A stretch of 64,000 nt of DNA, from contig JAZRDO010000001.1 of the NCBI GenBank assembly GCA_045660325.1, forward strand, positions 2,462 through 66,461, written 5' to 3'. Source of the stretch: Eubacteriales bacterium (GTDB lineage: Bacteria; Bacillota; Clostridia; Oscillospirales; CAG-272). Shown here in pieces: positions 44,107 to 62,678 of this stretch (position 1 is its first letter; the number at the start of each line of letters is the position of its first letter). The position numbers and the translations under genes are program-made. A model generated the notes under the pieces. The model was not told where the DNA came from. It saw only the letters and a program-made list of their open reading frames with translations, and ran no database searches.

Positions 44107-44141
44107 CACCCGCAAAGGAAATCCTTTGCGGGTGATTTTTT
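44107..44141. terminator. Bidirectional rho-independent terminator
   Basis: CACCCGCAAAGGA-aa-TCCTTTGCGGGTG flanked by A-run and T-run, between convergent rluB and the ABC operon. Confidence 0.8.
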
Positions 44142-44154
44142 GTATATCGGGAAA

Positions 44155-45396
44155 TTACTCAGCAGTAAGACCCGAACGCTCAATACCTTCAACAAGGTAT
44201 CTCTGCAGGAATGTGTAAAGAATTACGAGAGGAGCGATGATCATAAGCAACGAGGTGTTCTTTATCGTCTCGTTATAAAGCTTCTGACCAATGAATCCCT
44301 CCTGGATCAACTCGTGAGGAACGGTGCTGGCAATATCCTTCAAGAGATAGAGGCTATTGTTACCGTTATTCTTCCATACGCCCGACGTGGAGAGGAAGAG
44401 CTTACCTGTATAGAAGGTGTCTGTCCACTGCCAGCAGAACGCAAACAGGAATACCGTGATCATCATAGGAACGGACATCGGCAGAATAATCTGAATGAAT
44501 GTTCTGAAGTCTCCCGAGCCGTCGATATATGCAGATTCCTCAATAGAGTCGGGAATTCCGCGGAAGAACTGACGGAGCATAAAGATATACAAGCCGTTCT
44601 TGAACGCGAGACCCGTTACCGAAAGCAGGATAAACGGAATTCGTGTATTAAGAAGATTGATGGAGTGATCCTTGGATATCATAACGATTTTCTTTGCATT
44701 TTCGTTGAAGATAGGTCCTAACGTACCATTATTCTTAAACATATTTGCGAAGAACATTGCGATATCGTGAAGGACTCCGCCCTCCTTAAAGATGTTGATC
44801 GAGGCGAGAGCATTATCGATTCCCTCAACTCCAACTGACGCGCCGCCACTCAAAAAGCTTACGATGCCGAATATATCGAAGTTCTTAAAGCCCGTATAAA
44901 TAGCATAGTAAAGTGTCTTATGAGGAACTACCATCGTAAATACTACGAGGAGGAATATAAGCTTATTTCCCTTGAACTTGTACTTTGCAAGACCGTACGC
45001 GATAAAGCAGCAAACAAAGGTTTGAAGGATCGCGCAGGTGAAGGAAAGTGTAAACGTATTGAAGAACGCGGTCATATAGTGATTTTCTATAAAGATCGTC
45101 TTATACGTATTAAGTGTAAAGTTACGGGGGATAAGTCTTACCGTTGCGTCAACAAGGTCCTCGGGAGCCATAAATGAGCCCGTGATCTTTGTGAAGAAGG
45201 GGTAAAGTACTATGTACGCGATACCAAGAAGGAAGATAAATCTTACGATCTTGATAACGATACCTGAAAGGAAATAGAAATTTAAGAATTTAGCCTTAAG
45301 TCTGTCCTTGAGAGGTGTTCTGTCGAACTCGACTCTAATTTTATTCTTAGACTCTTTTTTCACTCTCGGAGCAGACGAAGTGTTCTGTGCATCCAT
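44155..45396 (-). CDS. Carbohydrate ABC transporter permease (MalG-like, unusually long at 413 aa)
   Basis: EAA loop EESAYIDGSGDFRTFIQIILPMSVP and C-terminal ...FLQRYLVEGIERSGLTAE. Has an N-terminal extension and a long extracytoplasmic loop. Confidence 0.85.
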   Translation of the reverse strand: MDAQNTSSAPRVKKESKNKIRVEFDRTPLKDRLKAKFLNFYFLSGIVIKIVRFIFLLGIAYIVLYPFFTKITGSFMAPEDLVDATVRLIPRNFTLNTYKTIFIENHYMTAFFNTFTLSFTCAILQTFVCCFIAYGLAKYKFKGNKLIFLLVVFTMVVPHKTLYYAIYTGFKNFDIFGIVSFLSGGASVGVEGIDNALASINIFKEGGVLHDIAMFFANMFKNNGTLGPIFNENAKKIVMISKDHSINLLNTRIPFILLSVTGLAFKNGLYIFMLRQFFRGIPDSIEESAYIDGSGDFRTFIQIILPMSVPMMITVFLFAFCWQWTDTFYTGKLFLSTSGVWKNNGNNSLYLLKDIASTVPHELIQEGFIGQKLYNETIKNTSLLMIIAPLVILYTFLQRYLVEGIERSGLTAE

Positions 45397-45411
45397 GTTT
45401 CTACCTCCTTT

Positions 45412-46359
45412 TTAGTCTTTACGCTGATAGAATACGAACATCGACATAAATGCGGAAACCGCGCCGATAATAAGTATTACCATCAAGAAGTACATCCACG
45501 ACATTGCCGCGCCAACCTCGGGTTCTTTCTTATTGACGTTGTCAATAAACATCATAACCGTGTTGTTTTCGGTAGTAAACGCGTCGATAACAGTATATAC
45601 AGCGTTAACGAGGATCATCGGGCTGATCATCGGGAATGTAATCTTCCAGAAGGTCTCCCAGCCTGTCGCACCGTCAATCTTACAAGCCTCGTAGATTGCA
45701 GGAGAAATGGACTGCAAGCCCGAGAGGAAGATAAGCATCTGTACGCCCGAACGGTTTACAATGTCGTAAATATCGTTGATTATCTTTACTACGTAACCTA
45801 CAAGCTCTTGTCCGACCGCCATATTGGAGAATAGCGCCTCAATATCCAGCGCCGAGACAATGTCCGAGGTCGCGCTTGACTCCGCACCGCTGTCAAAGCC
45901 CATGGAATCCATAGGAGCTGAAGAGGATGCGGGTGTCATAATACCTGTTGCAAGTACAACAGGGAGGAAGAAGATAGCTCTGAAGGCTGCTCTTCCCGCC
46001 ATCTTCTGGTTAAGAAGAATAGCCATGAAAAGTGAGAACAGAAGAATCGCAGGGATATCGAAGATCATCTCACCAAGACCGGGGAGAAGAGTTTCGAGGA
46101 ATGCGTGCTCTGTAAGTGCTGTCTGATAGTTTCTGAATCCTACGAAGCGGGGCTCGGAACGAATCGTCTCCGCAAGGTAGAACGTATCCTTCAAGGAATT
46201 GAAGATAATGGGAAGGTAGATGCATACAAAGCCAAGGATAAAAGGAAGAACGAATACCCAGCCCACACGAGCCTTACGCTTATCCAGAGATGCAATTTTT
46301 CTTTTCTTGGGAGCGGCATTTCTGCCGCTCTTATTATTAAGCTTTACTTCGCTTGTCAT
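45412..46359 (-). CDS. Sugar ABC transporter permease (MalF/LplB-like)
   Basis: EAA loop YEACKIDGATGWETFWKITFPMISP. I prefer ATG 46359 (about 9 nt after GGAGGAG) over the GTG at 46365. Confidence 0.85.
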   Translation of the reverse strand: MTSEVKLNNKSGRNAAPKKRKIASLDKRKARVGWVFVLPFILGFVCIYLPIIFNSLKDTFYLAETIRSEPRFVGFRNYQTALTEHAFLETLLPGLGEMIFDIPAILLFSLFMAILLNQKMAGRAAFRAIFFLPVVLATGIMTPASSSAPMDSMGFDSGAESSATSDIVSALDIEALFSNMAVGQELVGYVVKIINDIYDIVNRSGVQMLIFLSGLQSISPAIYEACKIDGATGWETFWKITFPMISPMILVNAVYTVIDAFTTENNTVMMFIDNVNKKEPEVGAAMSWMYFLMVILIIGAVSAFMSMFVFYQRKD

Positions 46360-46374
46360 ATTCACATCTCCTCC

Positions 46375-49300
46375 TTAGTTTTTGATAACTACAAAACCGT
46401 ATGCGGGAATTGTATAACGAACACCGTTGAATACAAGAGTTACCATATAGTTATTGTAGTTGAGAAGCATTGTCTTATATGCCTCGCCTTCAAGTGTACC
46501 GTAGGTTACCGCAATGATGTTGCCTGTGGAGTAACGGGACTCTTCCTTTTCGTCTCCGTTATCGTCGTCCTTGTCCTCATCATCGATAACTATTCTGTCA
46601 AGAACCTCCTGCTTTGTGATCTTGAGCTCCTCGGGAATATTGCCCTCGTAAATCATAGCGTCGAAATAGCTGTTTACGATCGCCTCAAGAGTCGCGCTGC
46701 TGTCGTTCATTGACTGCATAAGGATATATTCTGCGCGGTTGTCAACATCAGAGCCGGAGCGATACATTCTGTTTCCGTTAGAGTCAAGAATGTATTCACC
46801 CGCTACATCAACAAGCGCGTAAATCGTAATACCGTCAAGTGTTCCCTCTTCCTTATACTTGATAGCGGTGTAATCCGTACCGTCAAAGAAGTAGTAATCC
46901 TTGATAGATCCGTCGGAGTTCTTGGAGTAGTAATAATACTGACCGTTTGCCTTTCTGTCCTTGAAGACACCGTTGCCGAGGTCCTCTTCAACGTAAGGTG
47001 TAACGATTACCTTTCCAAGTCCTTCAACGTTGAACGCGTCAGGGTCGTCGGGTGCGGAAACGATCGTAAAGAACTTATAGTTAGTAAGATTGTCACCGAT
47101 AAACGCAACCTTTTCGCCGTCAATATTTGTAATGTAGTAAAGTGTTGTAGGTCTGCCTACCTTGTTGCCGTCCTCGTCGTACGCGTAGTACATGATAACG
47201 TCGCTACCCTTGGAGGGCTCACGTGTTTCAGTCTTCTTGAACGTGAACTTCTGCGCTGTCATGTTTGCCTTCGCGGATTCGATCTGGGAGATAGCCTGAT
47301 TTGTCAAGGGAAGCGCAGGATTGTCAAGAATTTCCTTGTTACGGATGATCTCAACGGATTCATAAGCAGCGTCGATCTTTGCATTGAGTGTTTCAATGGA
47401 TTTTTCTATCTGCATAAGGTCCTGAGCGAGCTTTGCGATCGCCTTGATGAGAATGCCCCTTGTATTCTTAACAAGATTGTACTGATCGGAATACGTCTTA
47501 TATTCGGGAGTGCCCTCAGCAGCCTTATCGTAGCCCTTCTCAATATACTGAGCGAGAACCGCACAATAATTCTTGTACAATGCGAGCTGAGAAACAACCT
47601 GCTCCTCGTCCGTCTTGGCTGTTACGCTGTAAAGGTTCCAAACGTTTTCATATTCCTTATCAGCCCAGATAAGAAGCTGACGGCACGCCTCTCTTGCAGA
47701 GGATACGGAATTGAGGATCTCCTGCTTTTCGATCTCAGCCGCATTTTCCTGCGCATCCTGGAACTTATCCATAGCATCAAGAATATCGTTCTGAATTTCA
47801 TCAAGGTCGGGAACTCTCAAGCCTGTTTCAATTATCTCATGACCGATAATGAACTTATCCTGTACGTCAAAGAGGGCGGAATTAAGCTCGTTGTAGGTTT
47901 CAACGATGTCTTCCTTCCAAATATCATATCTTACGGAGTAATACTTACTGAAGTATTCGTTCTCCTTAAGATTCTGTGTATTTCTGTAAGAAAGAATGAA
48001 GTAAGGCGACGCGCCGTTTTCAATTGCCTTGAGCATAGCGTATTCCATATTACCCTCCATGTTAAGAGGTGCGCCTGCGAACTGCACGGAGCCGTGGAGA
48101 ACAACGCCAAGGAAAGGAACGGAGGAAGCCGAAATGTTATAACGGGAGGAGTCGAGAGCCACACCGAGAATGTGGTCAACGTACTGCCACGAGTACGCGT
48201 TGCCGCCCTCTGTCATAACCTGATTATAAGTATTATCAAGATACTTGAACGCACCGATAGTATAGCTCTTGGAATCCTCTCTGTTGTAAGGCTCATCCTC
48301 GTCAAAGTCGGAGTTGAGAGCGCTACCGAGGGACGCTGCGGAAATACCTACGATGTTATTGAATTTTTCCGCATAGGTCTTCGTGATCTTCTCATAGAAT
48401 CTCTGGAAGTATGCGGGAGAGATCGCCATTTCGTAGTAGTTTACCATACCCTGAGTTGCAGTGTATGTTCTACGGCTCGCGTAACGGTCGTCGATCGTCT
48501 TAACGATATGCTTGTTAAGGTTAAGACCGTCGAATCCGCCTGTATACTTAACGTAAGCGAAATCAAAGTCGGGGAAAATACCGAGATTTGTGTTTTCACC
48601 CTTGTTTACGTCAGCAGCGTAGTTGAGAAGCTCCTGGAAGCCCTTCTTACCGCCAACTGCCTTTTCGATCTTGAAGCGGTAAGGAACCTTGGATTCAAGA
48701 CCGCCGTTTGCATAGCCCGTGAGCTTGAAATTAACGTTCTTGATACCGTCCTCGCCTGCAGAAATGTCCTCATACATAGTTTTGATATCCTCAAACGTCG
48801 TAAGAGGAGTCATTGTCTTTACGGGAACGCTGAGCACCTTTTCAAGTGTTTCAAGTGCGCCGAAGGTCTCAATATAAAGAGGAATATCCTTAGTAAGCTC
48901 ATCCTTGCCAAGAGGAGTAAGAATGGGTGTTTCACCGGACATAAGGTAGTCACGGTAAGCTACTGCCATACCGAACCAGGAGGTATCGTACGTCTTGTAC
49001 GTCTTGCCCTCGGGCGCCTCGTAATCGGAGAGGAGAACGTACTTGATTCTGTAGCTTCCAACGTACTTCTTGTCACATACTACCGTCCACTCGTTATTCT
49101 CCGCGTTAACCGAAAGAGAATCGGCTACCTTATAGGAGTCAGTAGGTCTGGGAGTTACCTTGATCTGAAGCGCGTTGTACTCACTCTTAGAGCCGTGGTG
49201 AGTTGTGGAAAGCTCGGAGAGAGCGTCACCCTCTTCGATAACAGCCATAAAGCCGCGCTTGTCCTCAATAACCTCAACCTTAGCGGTGGGGCTCTTAAGA

Positions 49301-50718
49301 ATTTCGGAATACTTGAGTCCGCATTCGGCAACTACGTCACCGAGCTTCTTCTTGAGTGCCTCGTTGGCATAATTCTCATCAAGATACTTATCAACGATAG
49401 CCGCGCTGATAACTACCTCGTAATCGCCAACCTTTTCATTAAAGTCTGTGTACTTGTAGAAAACCGTTTCCTCTACCGCGCCAAACACGGGATAGGAGAT
49501 AGTCTTCTGATATTCGCCTGTAACGGCGTGATATGCAAAGTCCTTACCGTAAACCTTGCCGCTTACAGTCTTTGCAGTATTTGTATTGAGGTCCTGATAA
49601 TCAAAGAGTGCGCCTGAGCCGTCGGGGAAGAAGTTGTATCCCTCGTAAGCGTTGTTACCTGCGCCCATATAAGGAAGAACCGTAATGGATTCAAGACGGA
49701 AGAGAGATTCATTGAATCTGATACCGTTTGCAGGAAGACGTACGTTCAAACCGTTTTCGTCAAGCGTGTATTCAAGAGCCATCTTGAAAAGCGGCGGGTT
49801 AGCATCGTCAGAAACGTACTGAGTAAGCTCGTGATCCTCGTCAAGATCCTCGTATGTATAATCGGGAGCAAAGGTCTTGATGATGTTTTCACATCTTGCA
49901 ACCTCGTTTTCATTTACGGTGGGGTCGAATACGTATACCGCCATCGTCTTTGTTGCGGGATACTTTGTCTGAACGTCCTCTGCTTCATCGGGATCCATCG
50001 TGGACGTATCCTTCAAAACGTAATAGGACTTAAGCTTTGTCATCTGGTGCTGGCTGATTCTGTCGTCGGGAGCAATATTCTTTTCCATCGCCTCAACGAG
50101 CGCGTCGAATCTGCTCTTTTCGATGAGCTTAGGAACAAGCATCTTTGCCTGCTCACGTCCCATCGTGTATTCAACACGGATACCGTTTTTAATGTTCTTT
50201 ACTCTGATCTGATTTCTGTAAGCCGCTTCTCTGAAGCTTAAGAACGTATTGGTCGTATTGTCCGTAATGTTTGTAAACTTAACGATGATCTGAGAGAGAA
50301 GCTCTTCCTTAGTGGAATTCTCACTGTCGTCAGCCTTGGACGAGCCAATATCGTAGGGGTTTGAGAATATAATCTCATTTGTAACTGTATTCTTGAGCGC
50401 AACCTCACCGCTGTACGTATCAACGTAGAGCTGATAGTCGCCGCGCTCTCTTTTGAGAGTCATTGCTGCAAGCTTTTCCTCGGGAGTCGCATAAATCGTA
50501 TTCTTGTAGGAATCCGGCTTAGCGTCAGGCCCCTCGGGTTGTTCTGTGCCGGGAGTCTCGCCGCTATCTCCACTGCCCTCTCCATCTCCGTTTGTATCGG
50601 AGCCGTCGCCGTCAGTTACCTCATCGGCGAGCGCGTTAACTGTGAAGACTGCTGTCAAAGAACCGAGCAATAACATAACAGTTAAGAGCAGCGATATTAA
50701 TTTTATGTAATTTTTCAT
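46375..50718 (-). CDS. 1447-aa secreted protein of unknown function (possibly DUF5696-like; TIM-barrel glycosidase-like core, coiled-coil and beta-rich C-terminal regions)
   Basis: Signal peptide MKNYIKLISLLLTVMLLLGSLTAVFTVNALA|DE and an acidic G/D/E linker. The central region IPLYIETFGALE...NFKLTGYANGGL...GIFPDFDFAY...VPFLGVVLHGSVQFAGAPLNMEGN reads like a (beta/alpha)8 glycosidase-like fold. The family name is from memory and was not searched. Confidence 0.75.
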   Translation of the reverse strand: MKNYIKLISLLLTVMLLLGSLTAVFTVNALADEVTDGDGSDTNGDGEGSGDSGETPGTEQPEGPDAKPDSYKNTIYATPEEKLAAMTLKRERGDYQLYVDTYSGEVALKNTVTNEIIFSNPYDIGSSKADDSENSTKEELLSQIIVKFTNITDNTTNTFLSFREAAYRNQIRVKNIKNGIRVEYTMGREQAKMLVPKLIEKSRFDALVEAMEKNIAPDDRISQHQMTKLKSYYVLKDTSTMDPDEAEDVQTKYPATKTMAVYVFDPTVNENEVARCENIIKTFAPDYTYEDLDEDHELTQYVSDDANPPLFKMALEYTLDENGLNVRLPANGIRFNESLFRLESITVLPYMGAGNNAYEGYNFFPDGSGALFDYQDLNTNTAKTVSGKVYGKDFAYHAVTGEYQKTISYPVFGAVEETVFYKYTDFNEKVGDYEVVISAAIVDKYLDENYANEALKKKLGDVVAECGLKYSEILKSPTAKVEVIEDKRGFMAVIEEGDALSELSTTHHGSKSEYNALQIKVTPRPTDSYKVADSLSVNAENNEWTVVCDKKYVGSYRIKYVLLSDYEAPEGKTYKTYDTSWFGMAVAYRDYLMSGETPILTPLGKDELTKDIPLYIETFGALETLEKVLSVPVKTMTPLTTFEDIKTMYEDISAGEDGIKNVNFKLTGYANGGLESKVPYRFKIEKAVGGKKGFQELLNYAADVNKGENTNLGIFPDFDFAYVKYTGGFDGLNLNKHIVKTIDDRYASRRTYTATQGMVNYYEMAISPAYFQRFYEKITKTYAEKFNNIVGISAASLGSALNSDFDEDEPYNREDSKSYTIGAFKYLDNTYNQVMTEGGNAYSWQYVDHILGVALDSSRYNISASSVPFLGVVLHGSVQFAGAPLNMEGNMEYAMLKAIENGASPYFILSYRNTQNLKENEYFSKYYSVRYDIWKEDIVETYNELNSALFDVQDKFIIGHEIIETGLRVPDLDEIQNDILDAMDKFQDAQENAAEIEKQEILNSVSSAREACRQLLIWADKEYENVWNLYSVTAKTDEEQVVSQLALYKNYCAVLAQYIEKGYDKAAEGTPEYKTYSDQYNLVKNTRGILIKAIAKLAQDLMQIEKSIETLNAKIDAAYESVEIIRNKEILDNPALPLTNQAISQIESAKANMTAQKFTFKKTETREPSKGSDVIMYYAYDEDGNKVGRPTTLYYITNIDGEKVAFIGDNLTNYKFFTIVSAPDDPDAFNVEGLGKVIVTPYVEEDLGNGVFKDRKANGQYYYYSKNSDGSIKDYYFFDGTDYTAIKYKEEGTLDGITIYALVDVAGEYILDSNGNRMYRSGSDVDNRAEYILMQSMNDSSATLEAIVNSYFDAMIYEGNIPEELKITKQEVLDRIVIDDEDKDDDNGDEKEESRYSTGNIIAVTYGTLEGEAYKTMLLNYNNYMVTLVFNGVRYTIPAYGFVVIKN

Positions 50719-50741
50719 ACCATCTTTCTCCTATCTGTTAT

Positions 50742-52895
50742 TTAAAGTCGGAATTGAATTTCTGTAACAATGTTAGTAACAAGGCTTACCATCTTCGTAA
50801 CGAGTGTTGAGAAGAGGATCGCGATAAACATAATAAATACCATTGCCACGGCTGTTCCCGCGATAGTGATAATATTCTTGCTCATCGTGTAGTCGTGAGT
50901 TACCTGTGTGCCGAAGAATATAAGCAAACCAAGCCAGATAAACGCGAATGTCGTAATAAGGTTGATAATGCTTACCTCGGTAAGGATACAGAAGTTGGAA
51001 TAGATCGTTACGGGTATAATGAGCAACGGAAGCGGGAGCAAGCTGTAGGAGCATGCAATGAAGATGTCCTTAAAGCTACCTTCACCGTCAAAGAGCGTTG
51101 TCAAACACCAGTTAGCAACCACGAAGAGGAAGAGAGGAACGAGGATAGATAACGCCTGTCCCCAGATCGTACCGTAATTGCCCTCGGGATTCATAAGGTA
51201 ACCCGAGCCAACGGACTGATAGAAAAATGCGAGAATGGTTACTAAAATGTAAACCAGGGACGCTCTTACCGATCCGCGCTTTTCATGCTTAAGGTCCCAG
51301 AATCCGTCAAACGGATGTAGCATCAGGTGGAATCCAAACAAAAGCTCCTCAATGAAGGTCTTCTTTTTGCCCGAAACTGCCGCCTTAGCATTGACCTTGG
51401 TAATATACTTGTTCGCAATTACAACACCTGCGATAACCACGCCGATGATCAAAATAAGAACGAGGAAGTAGTTGGACATCCATTCCTTTCTGATTTCCTT
51501 GTAGGATTCAGACCAGTTCTTGGTGTCGTACGCCGATTCAAAGTACTCAAGGGACTTCTTGTAATCGCCGTTTCTGTACATTGCCTGACCGATACCTACG
51601 TAAGCCGCGTCGAAGTTCGAGTTGGACTTAAGCACGTCGGTCCATTTGTTGATAGCCGTATCAAAATCCTGATTATTCTCGGCTGTAATAGCTTCAATAA
51701 TCGTATTGCCGTAGGGCTCTCTCTTGAATACGGTAAAGTTATTTGTAGAATCCGAGGAGTCAAGGACGAGCATCTTGCTTCCCTGATAGGTAATAGCAGT
51801 GATTCTCGTAATGCTTCCCATCATATTGCCCGATTCACCGAACGCGAAGAGCAAGCTACCGTTCTTATCGTATGTGTAGATACGGCTTCTCTTCTGGTCA
51901 ATGATGGACCATGTTCCCTCTTCGCCCTCAGCTACGTCAACGATCTTGGAAACACCGTTGTCGTCAGCACCGGGAGCCTTAGAGGCGTTATTGAAGTCAA
52001 CTTCACCCGCAGGTGGCCAGAAGCCGTTACGCGCCATGATCTCATCACCGCTGGTGTTGAGCTTCTTAACGGGCATATAGGTACCGTCGGTAACCTTACC
52101 TAAGATCTGGCTCTGAACCGTACCCTCTGCGATAGTAGACGTTGTAACGTAGATGAAGCCGTCCGAGCTGAGAGCAATGTTATTAAACTCGCTCGATACG
52201 TTTTCCATCTGCTGAGACTGCTGCTCCTCAGTACGGAGCTTTCTCCAGATCTTTTCCCACGCGGAGATCTCTGTTGCCTGCGCGCCGATAAATTTCTGGA
52301 ACTGACCGTCGTCGGTCATTACGATAATACCCTGATAGGTGGATGCGGATACAACGAAGAGACGGTTGTAATCGTCAACCGCGAGCGCGATAGGCTCGTA
52401 CTTGGCATCGTCACCGAAGAGGTGAGATTCGGGAGCTTCAAGGATCTTCTTGAAGTTACCCTTCAAGTCAAATGCAACTATTCGGGATTTGCCGGTATCG
52501 CAAACCCAAATCGTATCGTCGCTTACGAAAACGCCCTTGGGACCCTTCAAGGTGTCGGTATTACCAACGCTGTTCTTGAAGGTGGTAATTTCAAATTCAA
52601 GTCCGTAATAACGGTTAAGAACGACGATTCTATCGTTGCCGGTATCCGCAATGTAAACGTTGCCGGCTTTGTCTGTAATAATATCACTGGGCGCCTTCAA
52701 GGGAGTTGTAAGTCCCATCTTTTCGGACGTGATCGTATTCTCAACGTCATACGCGTCAGGAGAAAGAAGCGGATAACCGTCAATGGAATACGTGTACGTC
52801 TGATAAGCGGAGGATGCGTGAATTCCGATTATAGCGCAGGAGGCAATCATAATTACAGCGAAAGCTATGCACAATATCTTTGTGATGTTTTTCAT
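50742..52895 (-). CDS. Fusion protein: signal peptide, NHL-repeat beta-propeller, TPR, and Yip1-type 5-TM membrane domain
   Basis: NHL-like blades (DKAGNVYIADTGNDRIVVLN, DDTIWVCDTGKSRIVAFD, NRLFVVSASTYQGIIVM, DGFIYVTTS, RSRIYTYDKNG, KMLVLDSSD). TPR (AAYVGIGQAMYRNGDYKKSLEYFESAYD). A TM segment, then a Yip1-like FHLMLHPFDGFWDLKHEKRGS followed by 5 TM segments. Confidence 0.75.
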   Translation of the reverse strand: MKNITKILCIAFAVIMIASCAIIGIHASSAYQTYTYSIDGYPLLSPDAYDVENTITSEKMGLTTPLKAPSDIITDKAGNVYIADTGNDRIVVLNRYYGLEFEITTFKNSVGNTDTLKGPKGVFVSDDTIWVCDTGKSRIVAFDLKGNFKKILEAPESHLFGDDAKYEPIALAVDDYNRLFVVSASTYQGIIVMTDDGQFQKFIGAQATEISAWEKIWRKLRTEEQQSQQMENVSSEFNNIALSSDGFIYVTTSTIAEGTVQSQILGKVTDGTYMPVKKLNTSGDEIMARNGFWPPAGEVDFNNASKAPGADDNGVSKIVDVAEGEEGTWSIIDQKRSRIYTYDKNGSLLFAFGESGNMMGSITRITAITYQGSKMLVLDSSDSTNNFTVFKREPYGNTIIEAITAENNQDFDTAINKWTDVLKSNSNFDAAYVGIGQAMYRNGDYKKSLEYFESAYDTKNWSESYKEIRKEWMSNYFLVLILIIGVVIAGVVIANKYITKVNAKAAVSGKKKTFIEELLFGFHLMLHPFDGFWDLKHEKRGSVRASLVYILVTILAFFYQSVGSGYLMNPEGNYGTIWGQALSILVPLFLFVVANWCLTTLFDGEGSFKDIFIACSYSLLPLPLLIIPVTIYSNFCILTEVSIINLITTFAFIWLGLLIFFGTQVTHDYTMSKNIITIAGTAVAMVFIMFIAILFSTLVTKMVSLVTNIVTEIQFRL

Positions 52896-52912
52896 GTGAT
52901 TTCCTCCTTATA

Positions 52913-53785
52913 TTAGTCTTTCATACCACTGGATCCCATTGTTTCAATAATGTTGGACTGAGAAACAACGAATACCAGGATCGGTACCATCATCATAATA
53001 ACCTGTGATGCAGCAGATGCGCCCGCACGCTTGATACCGCCCGCGGTGATCTGACCGATCGCGTAGTTAAAGGACTTGAGCTGCTCGGAGTGAATGTACA
53101 TCGATGCACCCTGATTCCAGAGGCCCTGGAAGGAGTAGATGATAAGTGTAAGCCAAGCAGGCTTAACCATGGGCATTGCGATTACCCAATATGTACGGAG
53201 CTCGCCTGCGCCGTCAAGACGTGCGGACTCGAGAACTGTATCGGGAACGTTGGTATCCATAAACTGCTTCATAAGGTAAAGACCGAGTGTGGATGCCCAT
53301 GCGGGAACGATGATTGCAAGATAAGAGTCAAGCCAACCGAACGTCGACATTATAATAAAGGAAGTAATAGTCGTAACCGTAGAGTTAAACATAAGGGACG
53401 TCTGAACGAGCTGGAACATACCCTTAGCGCCGGGGAACTTTATCTTAGCAAGTGTATATGCTGCAAGAGACGCGATGAACAAGTGTCCAAAGGTACCTGC
53501 AACGGAAGTGAAGATCGTATTGAAGATGTATCTTGAGAAGGGCGCTACGGAGGTATTCATAAGCGCGAAGAGGGATTTAAAGTTATTGAGCGTAGGGCTC
53601 ATAACGATAAACTTGGGGGGATACATCCAAAGCTCGTCAAGAGGCTTCAACGACTGCATTACTACGTAGAACATAGGAAGGAACATAAAGAGTCCCAAGC
53701 CTACGAGAAGTACCGTAATAAACGCGTCGCCGCCTGCCGAACGGGCAAGTACGACTTTATGTTTTCTGGTTCTCAGCTTAGCCAT
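52913..53785 (-). CDS. Carbohydrate ABC transporter permease (MalG-like)
   Basis: EAA loop LESARLDGAGELRTYWVIAMPMVKP. 290 aa, 6 TM. Confidence 0.9.
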   Translation of the reverse strand: MAKLRTRKHKVVLARSAGGDAFITVLLVGLGLFMFLPMFYVVMQSLKPLDELWMYPPKFIVMSPTLNNFKSLFALMNTSVAPFSRYIFNTIFTSVAGTFGHLFIASLAAYTLAKIKFPGAKGMFQLVQTSLMFNSTVTTITSFIIMSTFGWLDSYLAIIVPAWASTLGLYLMKQFMDTNVPDTVLESARLDGAGELRTYWVIAMPMVKPAWLTLIIYSFQGLWNQGASMYIHSEQLKSFNYAIGQITAGGIKRAGASAASQVIMMMVPILVFVVSQSNIIETMGSSGMKD

Positions 53786-53786
53786 A

Positions 53787-54731
53787 TTACGTACCTACCT
53801 TTGACAGAATTTTCTTAACGAGGAAGTTTGCTCCGATCATGATCGCAAAGAGCACAACGGCGATAGCCGATGCGTAACCCGTCTCATAACGCATACCACC
53901 GTAGTCGGAAAGGTGGTGCATAATAGTATGACACGAGTAGTTTACTGACGGGAATCCGCAGAGCGCGTCAACGACGCCACCGAAGCCGAACGCGCCTGTG
54001 ATTGCCATTACGGCACCGAACATAAGCTGAGGCTTCATGGAAGGAAGCGTTATGTAATAAAGCTCCTGCCAACGGTTCTTGATTCCGTCAACCGCGCCCG
54101 CCTCGTAAAGCGAGCGATCTACGCCCTGAAGTCCCGCGATAAAGGACAGGAAGGACGTACCAAGGGATGTCCAGAGGGCAACGACGATACAAAGAGCCAT
54201 CGCGTATTCCTCTCTCTGGAAAAAGTTGATTTCTTCTTCTATGATATTGTATTCGAGAAGCATCGCGTTTACCCAACCGTAGGAGTCACCCGAGAAGAGT
54301 GTACCCCAGATAAGATAAACGTTACCCGAAATAGAGGGAGCGTAGAATATAAGTGTTACTACTGCACGGATCTTGGGAGGAAGCTCATTGATGAACCACG
54401 CTACCAAGAATGACATAAGGTAGGATGCAGGTCCTACTATACAAGCGAAAATAAACGTATTCTTGCATGCCGTTAAGAATATATCATCGTCGAAGAACAA
54501 AGTTATGTAGTTATCCAAAAATACAAAGCCCGGGAACTGGAGCATATTAAAGTCTGTAAAGCTCAAAATAATTGAAAGCAATACAGGGAGCACGGTGAAG
54601 ATAGTGAAAAGAATCATATAGGGCGCAACCATAACGTATGCTATCCAGTTACGCTTCATTTCTTTCCAAACCCACTGAGCCATTGTCATGTCCTTACGGG
54701 CGGCAGCTTGTTTTTCTGCTTTCTTAGGCAT
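53787..54731 (-). CDS. Sugar ABC transporter permease (MalF-like)
   Basis: EAA loop YEAGAVDGIKNRWQELYYITLPSMKP. 314 aa. Confidence 0.9.
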   Translation of the reverse strand: MPKKAEKQAAARKDMTMAQWVWKEMKRNWIAYVMVAPYMILFTIFTVLPVLLSIILSFTDFNMLQFPGFVFLDNYITLFFDDDIFLTACKNTFIFACIVGPASYLMSFLVAWFINELPPKIRAVVTLIFYAPSISGNVYLIWGTLFSGDSYGWVNAMLLEYNIIEEEINFFQREEYAMALCIVVALWTSLGTSFLSFIAGLQGVDRSLYEAGAVDGIKNRWQELYYITLPSMKPQLMFGAVMAITGAFGFGGVVDALCGFPSVNYSCHTIMHHLSDYGGMRYETGYASAIAVVLFAIMIGANFLVKKILSKVGT

Positions 54732-54780
54732 TTGTTCTCTCCTTTACTAGATTTTTACTGTTATTGAATTTAGATCAATA

Positions 54781-57700
54781 TCAATACTTTGACATTGCAT
54801 TTGCCGCATCGCTGAGCGCTACGGAAAGGAAGTAGAGAACATTTTCCTCGCTGAATCTGTTCTTATCAGCGATATCCTTGTTCTGAACCTGCATTGTTCT
54901 GATATTCATTGCATCGCCCTTAAGGTCAGTCTTTGCAGACTCGCCAATGAGCTTTGCAACCTCCTCGGATGCTTCCTTGATCGAGAGCATATCGTCACTC
55001 TTGATAGCCGTTCTTATAAGATCGAGAAGAGCCGTATTGCCATAGCCTCTTTCGCTCAAAAGATCAACTGCCGTCTGTGCCTGAGAGAGACGCTTGGATG
55101 CAAGCGTTTCGCCCTGCTCGAGAGTTTCAAGACCGAACTCAACTCTCTTTCTGGAAATTTCCTTGTTGATAATGTTAATGTAAGAAAGCAATTCCTTTTG
55201 AGGATCCGCCTTCTCGTTGTAAGCCGCGAGGAACGCGAAGTTTACGTAACGGTTGATAATGTATGCACCGGGGTAGTTAGGAATGGAAGCAAGGCCGTCA
55301 AGTCCGCCCTCACCGTCATAACCGTTGATCTGACCCATGATCTGCGTGAATTCCTCGGTTGTCCAAGGCAAGCTCTCGAGAGCCTCGATATTTGCCGTAG
55401 GATGCTTAGCGGAGGGACCCATGATAGCAACCATTTCGTTTGTGTACTCGGTCTGACAATTCTTACCGGTGTACCACTTCATAAATTCCCAAGCATCCTC
55501 ACGTCTCTTCTCTGCGCCCTTAACCATTACAGTTGCGCCGACGCCGGAGATAGACTGATTGTTGATAACGCCGTCCTCGTTTACAATACCGGGCAGCGGA
55601 ACGAACTGCCAGAGGCCTTCAATTTCAGTCGCGAATACCTTGAGCTGATTGTAAAGACCTGTGTAGTCACCGATAAGGATCGGCATCTCGCCCGTTCTGA
55701 AACGGTTAGCAGCATCGTACATATAGGGGAACTTATAGTCCGTGAACATCTTACACATCTTTTCGAAGGCTTCAAGACCCACCTTGGAGTCAAGGTTGAT
55801 TCTCATGCCGTCGTCAGCGAAGAGCTCACCGCCCATCTGGTAAAGGAACATTCTGTATTCAGTCGTAAGACCGATCTCCATTTCTCTTGCCTGAAGCAAG
55901 GGAATGAGAGCCATTACGTCCTCCCAGGTTTCGGGAATAATATTTTCTTCCGTCTTATCGGCATTATCCATCTCGCTATAGAGATCGGCTAAAACGTCAA
56001 GACGAACGTACATCATTGCAAAGGACTGAATTTCGGGAAGACCGTAATAGTGTCTTACACCCTCGGCGTCCTCAATACCGAGAACGAGCATAGCGGCATT
56101 CGTAAAGGACTTTGTAACCTCATCGAAGCCTTCATTCTGCTCAATGGGAAGGATTGCGGAACGGATCGCGTAGTTGATTACGTCATCCTGTCCGAGCGCG
56201 AGGTATACGTCAGGACCCTCACCCGCAAGGATAGAAGGAAGAAGCGTACCGCCCGCTACGAGCTTAAGATCCACCGTTATATTCTTGGAGGGAGTAAAGT
56301 CGTTATTTACAAGAGAACGAACTACCTGGAACTGGTCACGACCGGAAACCATCCATACCTCAACACCGTCAACGTCTTCCTTTGTTGTAGCGCCAACAGC
56401 ATTATAGTCACGTGTAAAGCTTGCGAAGAACGCTCTGATCTCGTGCCAGATTGCTCTGAAGAAGCCCGCCTCAGCCTTGGGCATTGCCTCATCGGGAGAC
56501 TGGATAATAATATAGTCCATCTGAAGAGGCTGAGTCTTTGCATCGGAAAGGAACGTACCGAGCGTACCGATATAGGACTTCAAGCGCGCAAGGTTCTTTG
56601 CGATTTCCTTTTCGTGCTGACCCATCTTGAGAAGAAGGTCCGCGATCTTCTGAAGAGTACCTACGTTTGCCGACTTCTGACCTGCAAGCTCGGTAAGTAT
56701 CTGAGCGACACCGGGCTCGGGGAACTGCTCGTCGGTTGCATAATTGGGGTTATCGAGAACCTTGGACTGAATTACCATATCTATAAGCTGGCTGGGCATG
56801 ATTCTCGAGAAGCCGTAGTCACGGTCGGAGTCGGGAGTCGTACCTGTAAGCTGGATAATGGAAAGGTAGTCACCGTTGATTCTGTCAAGACACTCCTGAA
56901 CTCTGCTTACGATCTCACCCATCTTACCGAGTGTAACCTCAAGCTTGATGGTATAAACGACACCCTCCTTGAAGTAGATGTGGTAGCCGTCCTGACCGTT
57001 GGAGCTCTTAAGATCCGTAACCTGCCAGTTATCATTGTAGTTATATACGAGAGCCTTTGCTTCCTCAAAGGGAATACCGTTGTAATATCCCGCTTCGCCT
57101 TCGCTAACACCCTCGCCGCTATAGATGTAAAGCGCACGGTTTACGTACATACCGTCGAGAAGATTCTGTCTGAATCTTGTAACGATATCGTAAAGGCCGC
57201 TTTCACCCTCGCCGAGCTTGAACTGATACGTTACCGCCTGTCCTGCACTCTGCCACTTGGATTCGCCGATCGTGTTGAGCAACGTTACCGCGGGAGAAGA
57301 GGGGGACGTAGCCGCGCTGGACTTGTCCTCAAGAGCGTATATAGTCTTATCAGTCGTAGTATTTGTAAATTCCGCTTCGATCTTGATAGAACCGTTTCCG
57401 TAAGGAACGTTTCCGAGAGAAGCGATATATTCCTCATAAGTGGGAAGCTTTTCCGCGGGAACAAGAGTAATACTCTTGATCGCAACGGCTTCGTTCTTAC
57501 CCTCAAGAGTAATGGTGTTCACCTTACCCGCCTCGAAAACGAATTCGAAGGGAGAGGAATAGAAGCCCGTGCTGTCCTTAATCTGATAGGTCGTCCACAA
57601 GGGATCCTGCTGCGCGTCGGGACGAAGCTCGTTGCCCCACACGTCGACCTTCATAAATCTTATGGAATATTTTTGACAGAAGTCCGAGATAGCTCCCGTC

Positions 57701-58359
57701 CAAACCTTGGGATACTCAAACGCAAGGTCACCGTTGTCCTTATACTTGGCAACAAGACCCGCCGCGCGTCCCTCAGCCTCAACTGTTCCCTTGTCCTCCT
57801 TACCGGAATAAACGCCGTCCTGGTAAAGATTTATCCAGTTCTTCTGAAGTGTGAGGTAACGAGCCTCCTTAAAGGGAACCTTATCGTTTATTTTAAGGAC
57901 TCTTTCAATGGGTGCGGGCTTACCCTCAACCGCGTAGTATTCAATAATAATTGTGTACTTCGCCGTTTGGGGAACCTCTACCGCCCAGGTTACAGAGCCC
58001 AAGCCCGAAGTGTAAAGAGCTTCAACACCCGCGTAAGTGCGAATGTGACCCGTTCCGTCTTTATCATATTCGGGGTCGGTTGTCAAATCGGGAATAACGC
58101 CGTCAATAGCATCAATGATCACCGTATTTTCAGGTAATGCCGGCTTGTACTGAGACGTTTCCTTCAAGTACTCATCATAAGAAATGGCATTGAGCATTTC
58201 TCTGATTTCCTGAATTTTGCTGGTATTTGCCGTAGAAGCAGAGTTAGCGGATCCGTCGCTGCTCTTTTCCGAAGCAAATGTCGGCAATGAAAAACAACCA
58301 ATAACAAACATTAAACAAAGCAATAATGCCGTCAATCTTTGAAATTTCGTCATTCTCAT
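54781..58359 (-). CDS. Giant (1192-aa) extracellular solute-binding protein with two N-terminal CBM-like beta-sandwich modules
   Basis: I prefer ATG 58359 (MRMTKFQRLTALLLCLMFVIGC..., RBS AGGAGG). Two stretches have the CBM6/35-like signature (TAKYTIIIEYYAVEGKPAPIERVLKINDKVPF; SGLYDIVTRFRQNLLDGMYVNRALYIYSG). An SBP family 1-like region follows from about residue 620 (VEVWMVSGRDQFQVVRSLVNNDFTPSKNITVDLKLV...), then a helical tail. Confidence 0.8.
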   Translation of the reverse strand: MRMTKFQRLTALLLCLMFVIGCFSLPTFASEKSSDGSANSASTANTSKIQEIREMLNAISYDEYLKETSQYKPALPENTVIIDAIDGVIPDLTTDPEYDKDGTGHIRTYAGVEALYTSGLGSVTWAVEVPQTAKYTIIIEYYAVEGKPAPIERVLKINDKVPFKEARYLTLQKNWINLYQDGVYSGKEDKGTVEAEGRAAGLVAKYKDNGDLAFEYPKVWTGAISDFCQKYSIRFMKVDVWGNELRPDAQQDPLWTTYQIKDSTGFYSSPFEFVFEAGKVNTITLEGKNEAVAIKSITLVPAEKLPTYEEYIASLGNVPYGNGSIKIEAEFTNTTTDKTIYALEDKSSAATSPSSPAVTLLNTIGESKWQSAGQAVTYQFKLGEGESGLYDIVTRFRQNLLDGMYVNRALYIYSGEGVSEGEAGYYNGIPFEEAKALVYNYNDNWQVTDLKSSNGQDGYHIYFKEGVVYTIKLEVTLGKMGEIVSRVQECLDRINGDYLSIIQLTGTTPDSDRDYGFSRIMPSQLIDMVIQSKVLDNPNYATDEQFPEPGVAQILTELAGQKSANVGTLQKIADLLLKMGQHEKEIAKNLARLKSYIGTLGTFLSDAKTQPLQMDYIIIQSPDEAMPKAEAGFFRAIWHEIRAFFASFTRDYNAVGATTKEDVDGVEVWMVSGRDQFQVVRSLVNNDFTPSKNITVDLKLVAGGTLLPSILAGEGPDVYLALGQDDVINYAIRSAILPIEQNEGFDEVTKSFTNAAMLVLGIEDAEGVRHYYGLPEIQSFAMMYVRLDVLADLYSEMDNADKTEENIIPETWEDVMALIPLLQAREMEIGLTTEYRMFLYQMGGELFADDGMRINLDSKVGLEAFEKMCKMFTDYKFPYMYDAANRFRTGEMPILIGDYTGLYNQLKVFATEIEGLWQFVPLPGIVNEDGVINNQSISGVGATVMVKGAEKRREDAWEFMKWYTGKNCQTEYTNEMVAIMGPSAKHPTANIEALESLPWTTEEFTQIMGQINGYDGEGGLDGLASIPNYPGAYIINRYVNFAFLAAYNEKADPQKELLSYINIINKEISRKRVEFGLETLEQGETLASKRLSQAQTAVDLLSERGYGNTALLDLIRTAIKSDDMLSIKEASEEVAKLIGESAKTDLKGDAMNIRTMQVQNKDIADKNRFSEENVLYFLSVALSDAANAMSKY

Positions 58360-58704
58360 TAAAGTTTTTCCTCCTGCTGAATTTTTCGGCGGATGTAAAG
58401 CCGCCATTTTAGGTTAAGCTTACGCATAATGCAGTGCGGTACGCGTAAACCGAAGAAATCAATAGCCCCCGCGTTTGGGAGCGATCAATCAAAAACACCT
58501 AAAGGTGTTTCGGACGGCACTGGCAGCACTATGCTATGCAATTGACCGTGAAACAGGATCCGTCCTTCCTATTGTAAAACGGTTTTCCTTTTTCACACAA
58601 AACACGTATTTAAGCCCTCTTCCCATCTGAGACAGCCGACAAAAGCACGTGTTAAACTCAGGTCATTGCATAACAAATACGTTGCGCACTATGCCCTAAA
58701 TTTA
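58360..58704 (-). promoter_or_regulatory. About 345-nt structured 5' leader with an internal terminator-like hairpin
   Basis: Minus strand: helices AACACGT...ACGTGTT and GGACGG...CCGTCC, then AAACACC-uuua-GGUGUUUUUGAUUG (plus coordinates 58484-58510), then about 125 nt more before the RBS. Confidence 0.4.
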
Positions 58705-58711
58705 CTTTAAT

Positions 58712-58741
58712 ATAATAACATAAATAAAGTTCGTTTGTCAA
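58712..58741 (-). promoter_or_regulatory. sigma-A type promoter of the 14-kb ABC operon
   Basis: Minus strand: TTGACA (58736-58741), 18 nt, TATTAT (58712-58717), with TGT upstream. Confidence 0.5.
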
Positions 58742-58907
58742 GATAAAAAAATCCCGCAAAATCCTTATGAACAATAGGATTTCGGGGTTTTTCCCGCTTT
58801 GAATGAACGGGTATCCCGACTTGAAATGAGCAATTTTTGCTCAAAACTGCCATTTTAATTTATTAAAGCGTCAATATGTAAATATAATTTACCCTAAAAG
58901 TGCATAT

Positions 58908-58943
58908 TTTGAATATATTCAAATCGTTTTGTATATATTTTCA
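58908..58943. repeat. Perfect 14-bp palindrome plus an adjacent degenerate copy (operator-like)
   Basis: TTGAATATATTCAA (58908-58921), then 6 nt, then TTGTATATATTTTCAA (58928-58943). Confidence 0.6.
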
Positions 58944-59821
58944 AGCTTTTTTACAAATTGGCGCGTGGAAAGTCAAACAAGGTAAATTCTTTTTACTTTA
59001 CCTATCATCATTTCACTATTGAAACAAGCGTTCTCACACACATATCAAAAATACGTTTTTGTGCAACTTTAACAGTTTTTAAGACTTTTTTTCTACATCC
59101 AAAAAATGTGCTTTTTAGAAAAACTTTTACTGTTTTATCCCCAAATTCAAAGATCGCGTCGAATTTTTGAGGTTTTTCATAAAATCCGCGAAATACCGCA
59201 AAGTTATTTACAGTTATTTCCATTTTTCTTAACAAGTAAACATTTCCCATGCCGCGCCTTCCTTCAATGCCGCAAAGCCCTTCGCTCCGATTGTCTCGGT
59301 GCGCCGCCCCTTAGATTTATCCGACAAGGCACTCATCATAGCAGGCACAAATAAACGCGGAGCTTAACCCACTACTACGCGAAAATGCAATTGGGGATAT
59401 ACACGAGAGATCCATAAAAACGCCTCTTGGTACCTGACGCCTCCTAACAATCGTCTTCTTGTGCGCCGTCCCTTGTGGTGCCTTTTACAATATCACATAA
59501 TGTCAAGTGATGCTTATGTGCTCGCAGCCATATACCGCCGTGCTTCGATCGCAGCCTCCGACGGATGCCAAAAGCTGTTCCGCAAAGCGCCGCCGAGCAG
59601 AAACGTCCCGCCTATCCAAGCAAACCGTATCCCATCACCGACATTATACCAATAAGCACCTCGGTCATCAGCCTCTTATTCCACTCGCAGATCGGAACCG
59701 ACGAACGGCGCATGATCAACGAGCGACGTTATCAAGATCCAAAGCGCACCGAATTCACGGCAACCGCCGCCTCTTCTATAAATCTATCATTGGTTTATTT
59801 TTAAACCTTTTGTTTGATTAA

Positions 59822-59861
59822 AGTATAAAAGACACACCCCCGATACAAGATCAAGGGTGTG
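59822..59861 (-). terminator. Rho-independent terminator after the HAD hydrolase gene
   Basis: Minus strand: CACACCC-15 nt loop-GGGTGTG followed by TCTTTTATACTT. Confidence 0.65.
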
Positions 59862-59870
59862 AAAATCGAA

Positions 59871-60506
59871 TTATTCAATTATTTTCTCAAGCTCGGAGAA
59901 ATCATCAAACACCGCGGCTCGGCAGGAAGAGAGTCGCTCTCTGTCGTGATGACCTCCCGTATATAGCGCGCAATCCGCGCCAAGAATCTCGGCAACCTCA
60001 AAGTCGTGTGTCGTATCTCCTATAAGCAGTGCTCTCGCCTCAGGGTTCCTCTCCCTCCACGCGCGAGCAAGATCCGCCTTACCTGCCGCGTGAATATTGG
60101 AAAGACCAATTATTTCGCCAAAATAGTCCTTTACACCAAGCTGCTCAAGCTGAGTTGTGAGCATCTCGATCTCGCAAGCCGACAAAACAAGCTGATCCAT
60201 TCCCTTCCCTTTGATATATGCGAGAAGCTCTCCGACTCCGTCCATAAGCTTTGGAGTCTTAGTATGCTCAAGATAAAGCTCGACCCACTCAACCGCAAGC
60301 ACCTCATAAGGCACCTTCGAGAAATCAAATCCGATCTTCTCATAATAATCGCGAACGGGAAAGCCGAAAACACGTCTGTACGCATCAACGCTCTCAATTT
60401 CCTTTACTCCGTACTTTCGGAGCATAATATTTACGCTCTCGATCCCCGCCATTACGTCGTCAAGGATCGTTCCGTTAAAATCCCAAATAATATGTGTGTA
60501 CTTCAT
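59871..60506 (-). CDS. HAD-IA family hydrolase (phosphoglycolate/sugar-phosphate phosphatase-like)
   Basis: IIWDFNGTILDD (DxD-type motif I variant), SAC (motif II region), and GDTTHDFEVA (motif IV). Confidence 0.85.
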   Translation of the reverse strand: MKYTHIIWDFNGTILDDVMAGIESVNIMLRKYGVKEIESVDAYRRVFGFPVRDYYEKIGFDFSKVPYEVLAVEWVELYLEHTKTPKLMDGVGELLAYIKGKGMDQLVLSACEIEMLTTQLEQLGVKDYFGEIIGLSNIHAAGKADLARAWRERNPEARALLIGDTTHDFEVAEILGADCALYTGGHHDRERLSSCRAAVFDDFSELEKIIE

Positions 60507-62586: not shown

Positions 62587-62678
62587 AAAGTTCCTCCTTT
62601 TACTCTCATCCCGATATATGTCAAGCACGTAAAAATAAGCATATTTTCGTATCGGAGCGAGAGAATACATACATATTA

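Follow-up and report, generated by a model that had tools for sequence, protein, structure and literature searches.

Here we describe a seven-gene operon (positions 58359-44155, minus strand) of an Eubacteriales bacterium, which lies in a 64-kb stretch of contig JAZRDO010000001.1 that was analysed as a whole and is referred to below as the window. The operon encodes a giant solute-binding protein (SBP), two pairs of membrane permeases (P1 with P2, and P3 with P4), a membrane protein that joins NHL, TPR and Yip1 domains, and a large secreted protein of the DUF5696 family. We consider it fairly probable that the locus is a cell-surface machine for the capture, hydrolysis and import of a glycan, built on the chassis of a CUT1 ATP-binding cassette (ABC) importer with a shared ATPase, in which the DUF5696 protein would be the hydrolase and the NHL-Yip1 protein an accessory. 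This assessment concerns the overall function of the locus and does not extend to the role of the Yip1 protein, in which we place much less confidence.

In the mechanism that we propose, the SBP would be lipid-anchored, with N-terminal beta-sandwich modules (carbohydrate-binding module (CBM) 35-like in orthologues) holding the glycan and C-terminal lobes resembling maltose-binding protein (MBP) binding the released oligosaccharide. The secreted DUF5696 protein would act as a hydrolase whose fold is distantly related to glycoside hydrolase (GH) families GH129 and GH101, of the alpha-galactosidase superfamily, and would most likely cleave an alpha-linked, galacto-configured or similar residue. 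The two permease pairs would form separate MalF/MalG-type dimers that carry the products across the membrane, both of them driven by a shared ATPase of the MsmX/UgpC type whose gene lies elsewhere in the genome. The NHL-TPR-Yip1 protein, as an accessory subunit, might tether or organise the extracellular parts at the permeases, as YknW does for YknXYZ. Finally, expression would be set by a factor encoded elsewhere that acts at paired GTAAA-N5-TTTAC sites, and/or by a structured leader.

Components of the operon

An earlier note, written from the sequence alone, had described seven co-directional genes separated by 1-49 nucleotides (nt), together with a promoter, a leader of ~345 nt and a bidirectional terminator. 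All of these features were recovered, with the seven open reading frames (ORFs) at the same coordinates and intergenic gaps, in transcription order, of 49, 1, 17, 23, 9 and 15 nt. The first gene encodes the SBP (1192 amino acids (aa); 54781-58359, minus strand, as for all seven) and is followed by those for P1 (314 aa; 53787-54731), P2 (290 aa; 52913-53785), the NHL-TPR-Yip1 protein (717 aa; 50742-52895), the DUF5696 protein (1447 aa; 46375-50718), P3 (317 aa; 45412-46365) and P4 (413 aa; 44155-45396).

P2, P3 and P4 match the Pfam family BPD_transp_1 at 36.6-39 bits, with a gathering cut-off of 26.4, and P1, which scores just under that cut-off (23.2 bits), was confirmed as a UgpA/MalF-type permease using NCBIfam (E 2.8e-19). 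The best NCBIfam matches are UgpA for P1 and P3, UgpE for P2 and MalG/GlcU/UgpE for P4. The four EAA loops that had been reported are all present in the translations (YEAGAVDG in P1, ESARLDGAG in P2, YEACKIDGATG in P3 and EESAYIDGSG in P4), and the combination of a MalF/UgpA-type subunit (P1, P3) with a MalG/UgpE-type subunit (P2, P4), each carrying an EAA loop, which marks the membrane part of a CUT1 importer, is found twice over. The two pairs are only ~23-27% identical to one another. P3 carries an extra hydrophilic loop (~aa 148-241) between predicted membrane segments, and P4 has two long hydrophilic loop insertions. It is established that a single ATPase, MsmX, serves several CUT1 systems of Bacillus subtilis. 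The ATPase that is absent from the operon is plausibly shared with other systems in the same way, since a ugpC/MsmX-type gene lies immediately upstream of the homologous module in Paenibacillus cellulosilyticus; the view of the earlier note that the absence is tolerable through such sharing therefore seems a reasonable one.

The SBP matches the Pfam family SBP_bac_8 in its C-terminal half only (E 2.4e-15), and so belongs with the SBP_bac_1/8 (MBP-like) fold of CUT1 importers. It is probably a lipoprotein, as the motif FVIGC at aa 18-22 fits a lipobox. In a model of the protein generated with AlphaFold2 (AF2; predicted local distance difference test score (pLDDT) 71.5), two beta-sandwich modules (~aa 75-305 and 320-478) precede a helical bundle (480-608) and the binding-protein fold (612-1075), with C-terminal helices beyond. 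In Foldseek searches the binding-protein lobe matches sophoro-oligosaccharide- and manno-oligosaccharide-binding proteins and MBP (5ysf, 4r9g). These MBP-fold matches dominate when the full model is used as the query, which leaves the N-terminal modules unclassified by this method. At the equivalent N-terminal position, however, the orthologue P0144 matches CBM_35 above the Pfam cut-off (30.5 bits; cut-off 28), with the match falling on the first beta-sandwich module, and a second orthologue, P0137, does so below it (26.8 bits).

The 1447-aa protein matches PF18952 (DUF5696) in two stretches with an E of 9e-128 (427.8 bits; cut-off 25.6). The match ends at position 580 of the 612 in the profile, and the missing end is probably explained by a clade-specific insertion that splits off the last strands. 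Following a signal peptide and a linker rich in G, D, S, E and P, the protein is laid out as a GH129/GH101-like core (~aa 70-1000), the insertion (~1000-1390) and terminal strands (1391-1447); a search of the protein for an LPXTG sortase signal gave none. An AF2 model of residues 65-1010, built from a 47-sequence alignment, has a mean pLDDT of 69.5 and a predicted template modelling (TM) score of 0.62. When this model was compared with the PDB using Foldseek, the top match of the core was the GH129 3,6-anhydro-D-galactosidase 5opq (E 3.6e-15, target-normalised TM-score 0.53), followed by the alpha-N-acetylgalactosaminidase NagBb (5wzp, GH129; E 1.8e-11), the GH101 endo-alpha-N-acetylgalactosaminidases (~1e-8 to 1e-7) and 9ayu, a galactosaminidase of Flavonifractor, with GH13 enzymes ranking after these. 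The predicted model possesses the N-terminal beta-sandwich and the (beta/alpha)8-type barrel of the GH129/GH101 fold, with structural alignments at ~10% identity, and by sequence the protein lies outside both families. Thus, the statement of the earlier note that the operon holds no recognisable carbohydrate-active enzyme (CAZyme) is valid only where sequence methods are concerned.

In a 99-sequence alignment of DUF5696 proteins (23-80% identity to the window protein), three carboxylates are invariant, D366 (PDGxG), D393 (YGxD) and E900 (IExGA), and a fourth, D804 (SD[FY]), is conserved at 96%; R813, N840, Y842, H875, N886 and W934 are also conserved. D804 and E900 lie in the barrel region and D366 and D393 in the N-terminal domain. 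Such a pattern of carboxylates fits an active site, although the assignment of catalytic roles is tentative, as the model is weak near D804 (pLDDT <50). Three other catalytic candidates, D653 (FPDFDF), E773 and D792, were dropped for lack of conservation in the homologues from Butyrivibrio and Paenibacillus. When the full set of 1.84 billion representatives was searched with phmmer, the family came to 4180 clusters (50% identity) at E <= 1e-3 and to 1432 clusters at E <= 1e-30, and a full-text literature search for DUF5696 or PF18952 found no papers. Based on the modelled fold and the conserved residues, we predict that DUF5696 is a glycoside hydrolase outside the recognised families, which makes the depolymerase role that had been proposed for the 1447-aa protein credible.

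The insertion at ~aa 1000-1390 (~400 residues), which has no Pfam match, consists of long helices followed by Tyr/Asp/Gly-rich repeats and is found only in the clade of the window, where it accounts for DUF5696 sizes of 1317-1997 aa. The homologues of Butyrivibrio and Paenibacillus are without it, and in these the barrel runs straight into strands that align with ~1391-1447. The C-terminal stretch bearing the insertion (~aa 1000-1447) corresponds to positions 46375-47700 of the window. On the plus strand, long ORFs run antisense to the DUF5696 gene (47839-49617, 592 aa) and to the SBP gene (56050-58137, 695 aa); these are most likely by-products of codon composition and not genes.

DUF5696 might instead be a non-catalytic glycan-binding or structural protein of the cell surface, in a module that imports oligosaccharides released by other enzymes or serves chiefly as a surface sensor via the NHL propeller. 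Its lack of sequence similarity to any GH family and the low confidence of the modelled active-site region would fit this view, as would the known use of PknD-type NHL propellers as extracellular sensor domains and the fact that the window locus holds no other CAZyme in need of a partner. Three invariant carboxylates and one near-invariant carboxylate, together with conserved Arg, Asn and His residues across more than 4000 clusters (50% identity), are nevertheless typical of an active site, and every one of the best structural matches is an active glycosidase. We therefore regard a non-catalytic DUF5696 as unlikely, and retain a hydrolase as the preferred reading.

The 717-aa protein comprises a signal peptide, an NHL propeller (~aa 60-390), a TPR region (~aa 400-465), one transmembrane segment and a Yip1 domain with five more. 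The Yip1 match is above its Pfam cut-off over the full-length profile (PF04893; E 2.2e-14) and the NHL match has an E of 1e-8, whereas the TPR matches fall under the Pfam cut-offs. A sequence search of the PDB matched the propeller to the PknD-derived Pizza proteins (E 3e-19), and hydropathy analysis found hydrophobic segments throughout aa 541-710, which fits about five transmembrane segments. Since an N-terminal signal sequence comes first and the transmembrane segment and Yip1 domain lie downstream, the propeller and TPR should face outwards. NHL and Yip1 form a single gene in the clade of the window, as in P. cellulosilyticus, and separate genes overlapping by ~20 nt in Butyrivibrio (locus L088, 9729-11824), an Acetatifactor-like contig (L090, 7891-9986), Paenibacillus alkalitolerans (L091, 7915-9985) and Cohnella (L092, 7913-9986). 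As they are either fused or adjacent and overlapping, the two parts are functionally linked. Neither this protein nor the DUF5696 protein was placed in a characterised family with a defined substrate.

By analogy with YknW, which belongs to the Yip1 family and modulates assembly of the YknXYZ ABC transporter (PMC4887032), a role for the Yip1 fusion as a scaffold or sensor can be conjectured, YknW being its sole precedent. A more specific arrangement, which we think improbable, would make the module a novel type of multi-component ABC importer: P3 and P4, with their enlarged outer loops, would dock the GH129-like DUF5696 protein via NHL-Yip1, so that an enzyme of a new GH family would take the place of an SBP and couple hydrolysis to translocation, leaving P1 and P2 to work with the giant SBP.

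Conservation of the module and competing readings

We then examined how far the seven genes are kept together. Among the candidates scored, homologues of the 1447-aa protein form 1713 clusters (90% identity), and in six neighbourhoods, ranging from 79% down to 43% identity, the same seven genes occur in the same order within at least four distinct sets of flanking genes. In a scan of one genome per GTDB species, relatives were present in at least 486 species representatives. The 80 loci that were retained all derive from metagenome-derived or uncultured assemblies, nearly all of them labelled Clostridia, Eubacteriales or Oscillospiraceae, sampled from the guts of humans, ruminants, horses and other hosts. 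With the seven window proteins as tblastn queries, every one of the 87 related loci showed the order SBP-P1-P2-Yip-DUF-P3-P4 on one strand, within the limits of its contig. Across these loci P2 is the most conserved of the seven (73-99% identity) and P1 is similar (73-97%), and conservation is lowest for the SBP (46-85%) and for the DUF5696 protein (43-79%).

The same arrangement extends to distant Bacillota. A tblastn search of the PLSDB plasmids with the DUF5696 core gave two matches, at 26% and 24% identity. On plasmid pNP243 of Butyrivibrio fibrisolvens D1, genes for a response regulator, a histidine kinase, a GH43 enzyme and an SBP (977 aa) are followed by two permeases, NHL, YIP1, DUF5696, two permeases and two further SBPs; on a plasmid of P. 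cellulosilyticus the order is ugpC, SBP (986 aa), two permeases, a YIP1 family protein (719 aa), DUF5696 and two permeases. For each window protein the best match in both loci is the gene at the same position. P1 and P2 are 56-57% identical to their Butyrivibrio counterparts (56% for P1) and P3 and P4 37-44%, and the SBP is 31% identical to the Butyrivibrio SBP over aa 1-1077 (E 9e-161); in distant loci the P3 orthologue, with 34-40% identity, is found at the corresponding place. With the DUF5696 protein of Butyrivibrio as the query, a further search identified three more contexts in which the module order is kept, namely the Acetatifactor-like contig (with a histidine kinase, GH43 and two extra SBPs), P. 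alkalitolerans (with two LacI genes, an extra SBP, GH113 and GH2) and Cohnella nanjingensis (with LacI, an extra SBP, GH26 and an AraC-type gene). Thus, the order holds position for position even where DUF5696 identity has fallen to 24-26%.

Because they are present in these distant loci, the giant SBP, the second permease pair and NHL-plus-Yip1 are defining parts of an ancient Bacillota module and not local elaborations. We accordingly rejected the view that the window locus is special in its NHL-Yip1 fusion and giant SBP, and the earlier note was mistaken in calling the modules here more elaborate: giant SBPs (965-1196 aa) and NHL-plus-Yip1 belong to the module everywhere. Its treatment of the genes as one unit is upheld by the synteny of the 87 related loci and of the Butyrivibrio, Acetatifactor-like, Paenibacillus and Cohnella loci, with homologous clusters keeping the genes together, and its statement that Yip1 and DUF5696 proteins recur beside CUT1 transporters in Paenibacillus and Clostridia was correct. 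The neighbours of the module in cultivable hosts also offer a hint of the substrate. Since GH26 and GH113 beta-mannanases and GH43 lie beside it there, plant glycans with alpha-linked side groups, such as galactomannan, are a lead; the breakdown of galactomannan needs a debranching activity of the alpha-galactosidase type.

Several observations weigh against a glycan capture, hydrolysis and import machine. As the earlier note had it, there is one SBP and no ABC ATPase: no ATPase signature was found in the operon or in the whole of the window, where the sole LSGG motif is that of SMC. The operon also has a single SBP for its two permease pairs, and the second pair may or may not use it. The CBM fusion that had been proposed for the SBP, although a CBM_35 match passes the cut-off in orthologue P0144, is not significant in the window copy, whose N-terminus has no CBM at Pfam significance (Golvesin_C at E 0.11 only). 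Searches of all PDB sequences with the DUF5696 protein, using phmmer for the single sequence and also a 47-sequence family profile, returned only coiled-coil noise from the insertion. Likewise, no GH family emerged when the window copy and eight distant members were scanned with Pfam at permissive thresholds (E up to 5-10). The link to glycoside hydrolases thus runs through a model of medium confidence. Lastly, no other CAZyme, regulator or ATPase lies near the operon in the window or its clade, where the neighbours are housekeeping and sporulation genes, an unusual setting for a nutrient-foraging locus. The transporter, classified CAZyme and regulator that together make up a Gram-positive polysaccharide utilisation locus (PUL) are not assembled in the window, and are so assembled in the distant homologous loci.

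This setting raises the possibility that the module recycles a glycan of the cell's own envelope (a wall polysaccharide, a capsule or a spore-associated glycan), trimming it and taking its units back in, and does not forage for nutrients. Such a role would explain a core gene set that sits among housekeeping and sporulation genes with no regulator gene nearby. In the window these flanks include ScpA/B, YtfJ, a D-Ala-D-Ala carboxypeptidase, a pseudouridine synthase, HAD, sigma-70, SMC and FtsY, alongside RNase III, TopA, DprA and Lon, and sigma-E/SpoIIGA-type genes occur among the flanks of related loci. The presence of the module in so many species representatives of the clade, the very high conservation of the permeases (up to 99% for P2) and the helical and Tyr/Asp-rich insertion of the clade's DUF5696 proteins, which could bind the wall, would also be in keeping with it. 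However, the copies of Lachnospiraceae and Paenibacillaceae lie in carbohydrate-utilisation loci (with GH43, GH26, GH113, LacI or two-component genes), the flanks vary between loci so that the housekeeping context is itself not conserved, and the promoter and leader signals described below, which are strong, conserved and apparently regulated, suit an inducible catabolic operon. For these reasons envelope recycling appears to us a rather doubtful account, and we continue to favour glycan uptake from outside. That two unrelated ABC transporters and two unrelated surface proteins are adjacent by chance, as the low identity between the permease pairs and the single SBP might suggest, is effectively refuted by the synteny, in which order and strand are the same in 87 of 87 loci and across Clostridia and Bacilli down to 24-26% DUF5696 identity, and is at odds with gaps of 1-49 nt, one promoter and one terminator; it is by far the least probable of the explanations that we considered.

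Transcription signals and surroundings

The operon is preceded by a sigma-70-type promoter, TTGACA-N18-TATTAT with an extended -10 TG (58712-58741, minus strand), which agrees with the consensus at 11 of 12 positions and is the best sigma-70 match of a 16-kb region. Its -35 and -10 elements are kept in all aligned related loci, as are the first transcribed bases, AGTAAATTTAGGGCAT, in related loci. The structured leader of ~345 nt (58360-58705, minus strand) ends with an AGGAGG ribosome-binding site, and the ATG of the SBP gene at 58359 lies nine bases past it; a longer SBP ORF from an upstream ATG, reaching 58407, is unlikely, as it is the ATG at 58359 that follows AGGAGG. At the other end, a bidirectional intrinsic terminator (44107-44134) with a 12-bp stem, eight G-C pairs and T-runs on both strands is also used by the convergent pseudouridine synthase gene.

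Upstream of the promoter, the palindrome GTAAA-N5-TTTAC occurs at 58982-58996 (distal) and 58878-58892 (proximal), 104 nt apart. These candidate operators are the only two copies in the window, compared with 0.09 expected from shuffled sequences. The palindrome is present at the equivalent upstream place in ~45 related loci, frequently in two copies with a spacing of 102-115 nt, and the proximal block is also conserved in a 7-locus alignment. This recurrence makes it likely that a regulator recognising the paired sites is encoded elsewhere.

The leader of the window has a minimum free energy of -119.7 kcal/mol (z = -4.55), a stability reached by none of 100 shuffles, and shares sequence blocks with related loci. 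It matched no Rfam family, whether gathering scores were applied or E values up to 1-10 were admitted; a Thr_leader match (E 0.15) was dismissed, as it is located upstream of the promoter. In 18 more distant loci, a leader element (B3/B4) forms two helices with compensatory changes, in which 93% of cells are paired and six of the 12 pairs have changed on both sides. Its covariation score was reached by none of 500 shuffles, and pairing did not exceed 61% in slid controls; the window's own subclade is without this covarying part. The element lies at 2090-2301 of locus L013 and occurs in the 17 other loci, and its CCUCC stretch could base-pair with the ribosome-binding site. Only 15 of 88 loci match a strict regular expression covering the promoter plus the start of the leader, which indicates that the leader sequence diverges across the clade. 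Within the window leader, a hairpin GCUCCC...GGGGGC with a weak U-rich tail (58465-58482, minus strand) could act as an attenuator; this terminator-like hairpin is not kept in the most distant loci. Taken together, the palindromes and the leader point to control of the operon by a factor encoded elsewhere and/or by leader RNA. The earlier note was thus right that no regulator gene lies nearby, and incomplete in leaving out these conserved signals.

The gene-free, AT-rich spacer that holds the palindromes (58760-59870, ~1.1 kb) lies between the terminator of a HAD gene (59861-59833) and the operon promoter, and related loci have a gap of 1-1.4 kb at the same upstream place. An ORF of 80 aa in the spacer (59008-59250) was dropped for want of a convincing homologue in related loci, and the other small ORFs there are not conserved. 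The HAD hydrolase gene (59871-60506) is adjoined by a gene for a 713-aa protein (60559-62700, minus strand) that has no Pfam match and whose homologues (35-75% identity) occupy the same upstream place in several, not all, related loci; the terminator separates both genes from the operon. Further away, a T-box leader (7710-7939, plus strand; Rfam RF00230, 111 bits) is found upstream of two ORFs, of 340 and 799 aa, which to judge by their sizes may be pheS and pheT.

Comparison with known systems

No description of the module as a system was found in the literature searched, though its components carry database labels. It is widespread, being found in the species representatives of uncultured gut Clostridia noted above and also in Butyrivibrio, Paenibacillus and Cohnella, which can be cultivated. 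Should DUF5696 prove to be a hydrolase, surveys of gut and rumen glycan breakdown based on dbCAN or Pfam would leave a new CAZyme family uncounted. The partnership of two permease dimers, a giant SBP and NHL-Yip1 is not explained by the textbook model of an ABC importer, and the module could reveal how the processing of surface glycans is coupled to uptake in Gram-positive bacteria. As short DUF5696 orthologues of 858 aa, such as those of C. nanjingensis and P. alkalitolerans, lie beside GH26 and GH113 mannanases in cultivable hosts, the question is directly testable.

The closest parallel for the transport part is with CUT1 importers such as MalEFGK2 and the MsmX-sharing systems of B. subtilis, with which the operon has in common MalF/UgpA plus MalG/UgpE pairs, EAA loops, a probably lipid-anchored SBP of the SBP_bac_1/8 fold and the lack of an ATPase gene. 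Unlike these importers, it has two permease pairs and one SBP, and that SBP reaches roughly three times the normal size, with its two beta-sandwich modules, helical bundle and C-terminal helical extension. Yip1/NHL and DUF5696 are, furthermore, obligatorily co-conserved with the transporter, and P3 and P4 have long extra loops.

The core predicted for DUF5696, in which a TIM-type barrel comes after an N-terminal beta-sandwich, is like those of GH129 (5wzp, 5opq) and GH101 (3ecq, 2zxq); 5wzp is NagBb of Bifidobacterium bifidum, 5opq the 3,6-anhydro-D-galactosidase of Zobellia, and 3ecq and 2zxq are GH101 endo-alpha-N-acetylgalactosaminidases. It differs in having no detectable sequence similarity to these families, and the window protein carries the ~400-residue helical and repeat insertion before its last strands. 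The coupling of a Yip1-domain membrane protein to an ABC transporter is, in turn, reminiscent of YknWXYZ of Bacillus, where YknW is needed for assembly (PMC4887032). YknYZ, however, is a MacB-type exporter with a membrane-fusion protein, whereas the partners in the window are permeases of type I importers, and the Yip1 domain found there, unlike YknW, comes with an extracellular NHL propeller and TPR attached.

At the level of the whole locus, the arrangement resembles Gram-positive PULs such as those of Roseburia, Eubacterium and Bifidobacterium, which combine a surface enzyme bearing binding modules with an SBP-dependent ABC importer. The window copy differs from these in having no nearby regulator gene, classified CAZyme or ATPase, and to our knowledge neither the Yip1/NHL component nor the second permease pair has a described counterpart in Gram-positive PULs. 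The distant copies of the module, on the other hand, sit inside PUL-type loci with GH43, GH26, GH113, and LacI or two-component regulators. We therefore put the module forward as a candidate glycan utilisation system of the Gram-positive, ABC-based kind, with a candidate for a new glycoside hydrolase family among its parts.

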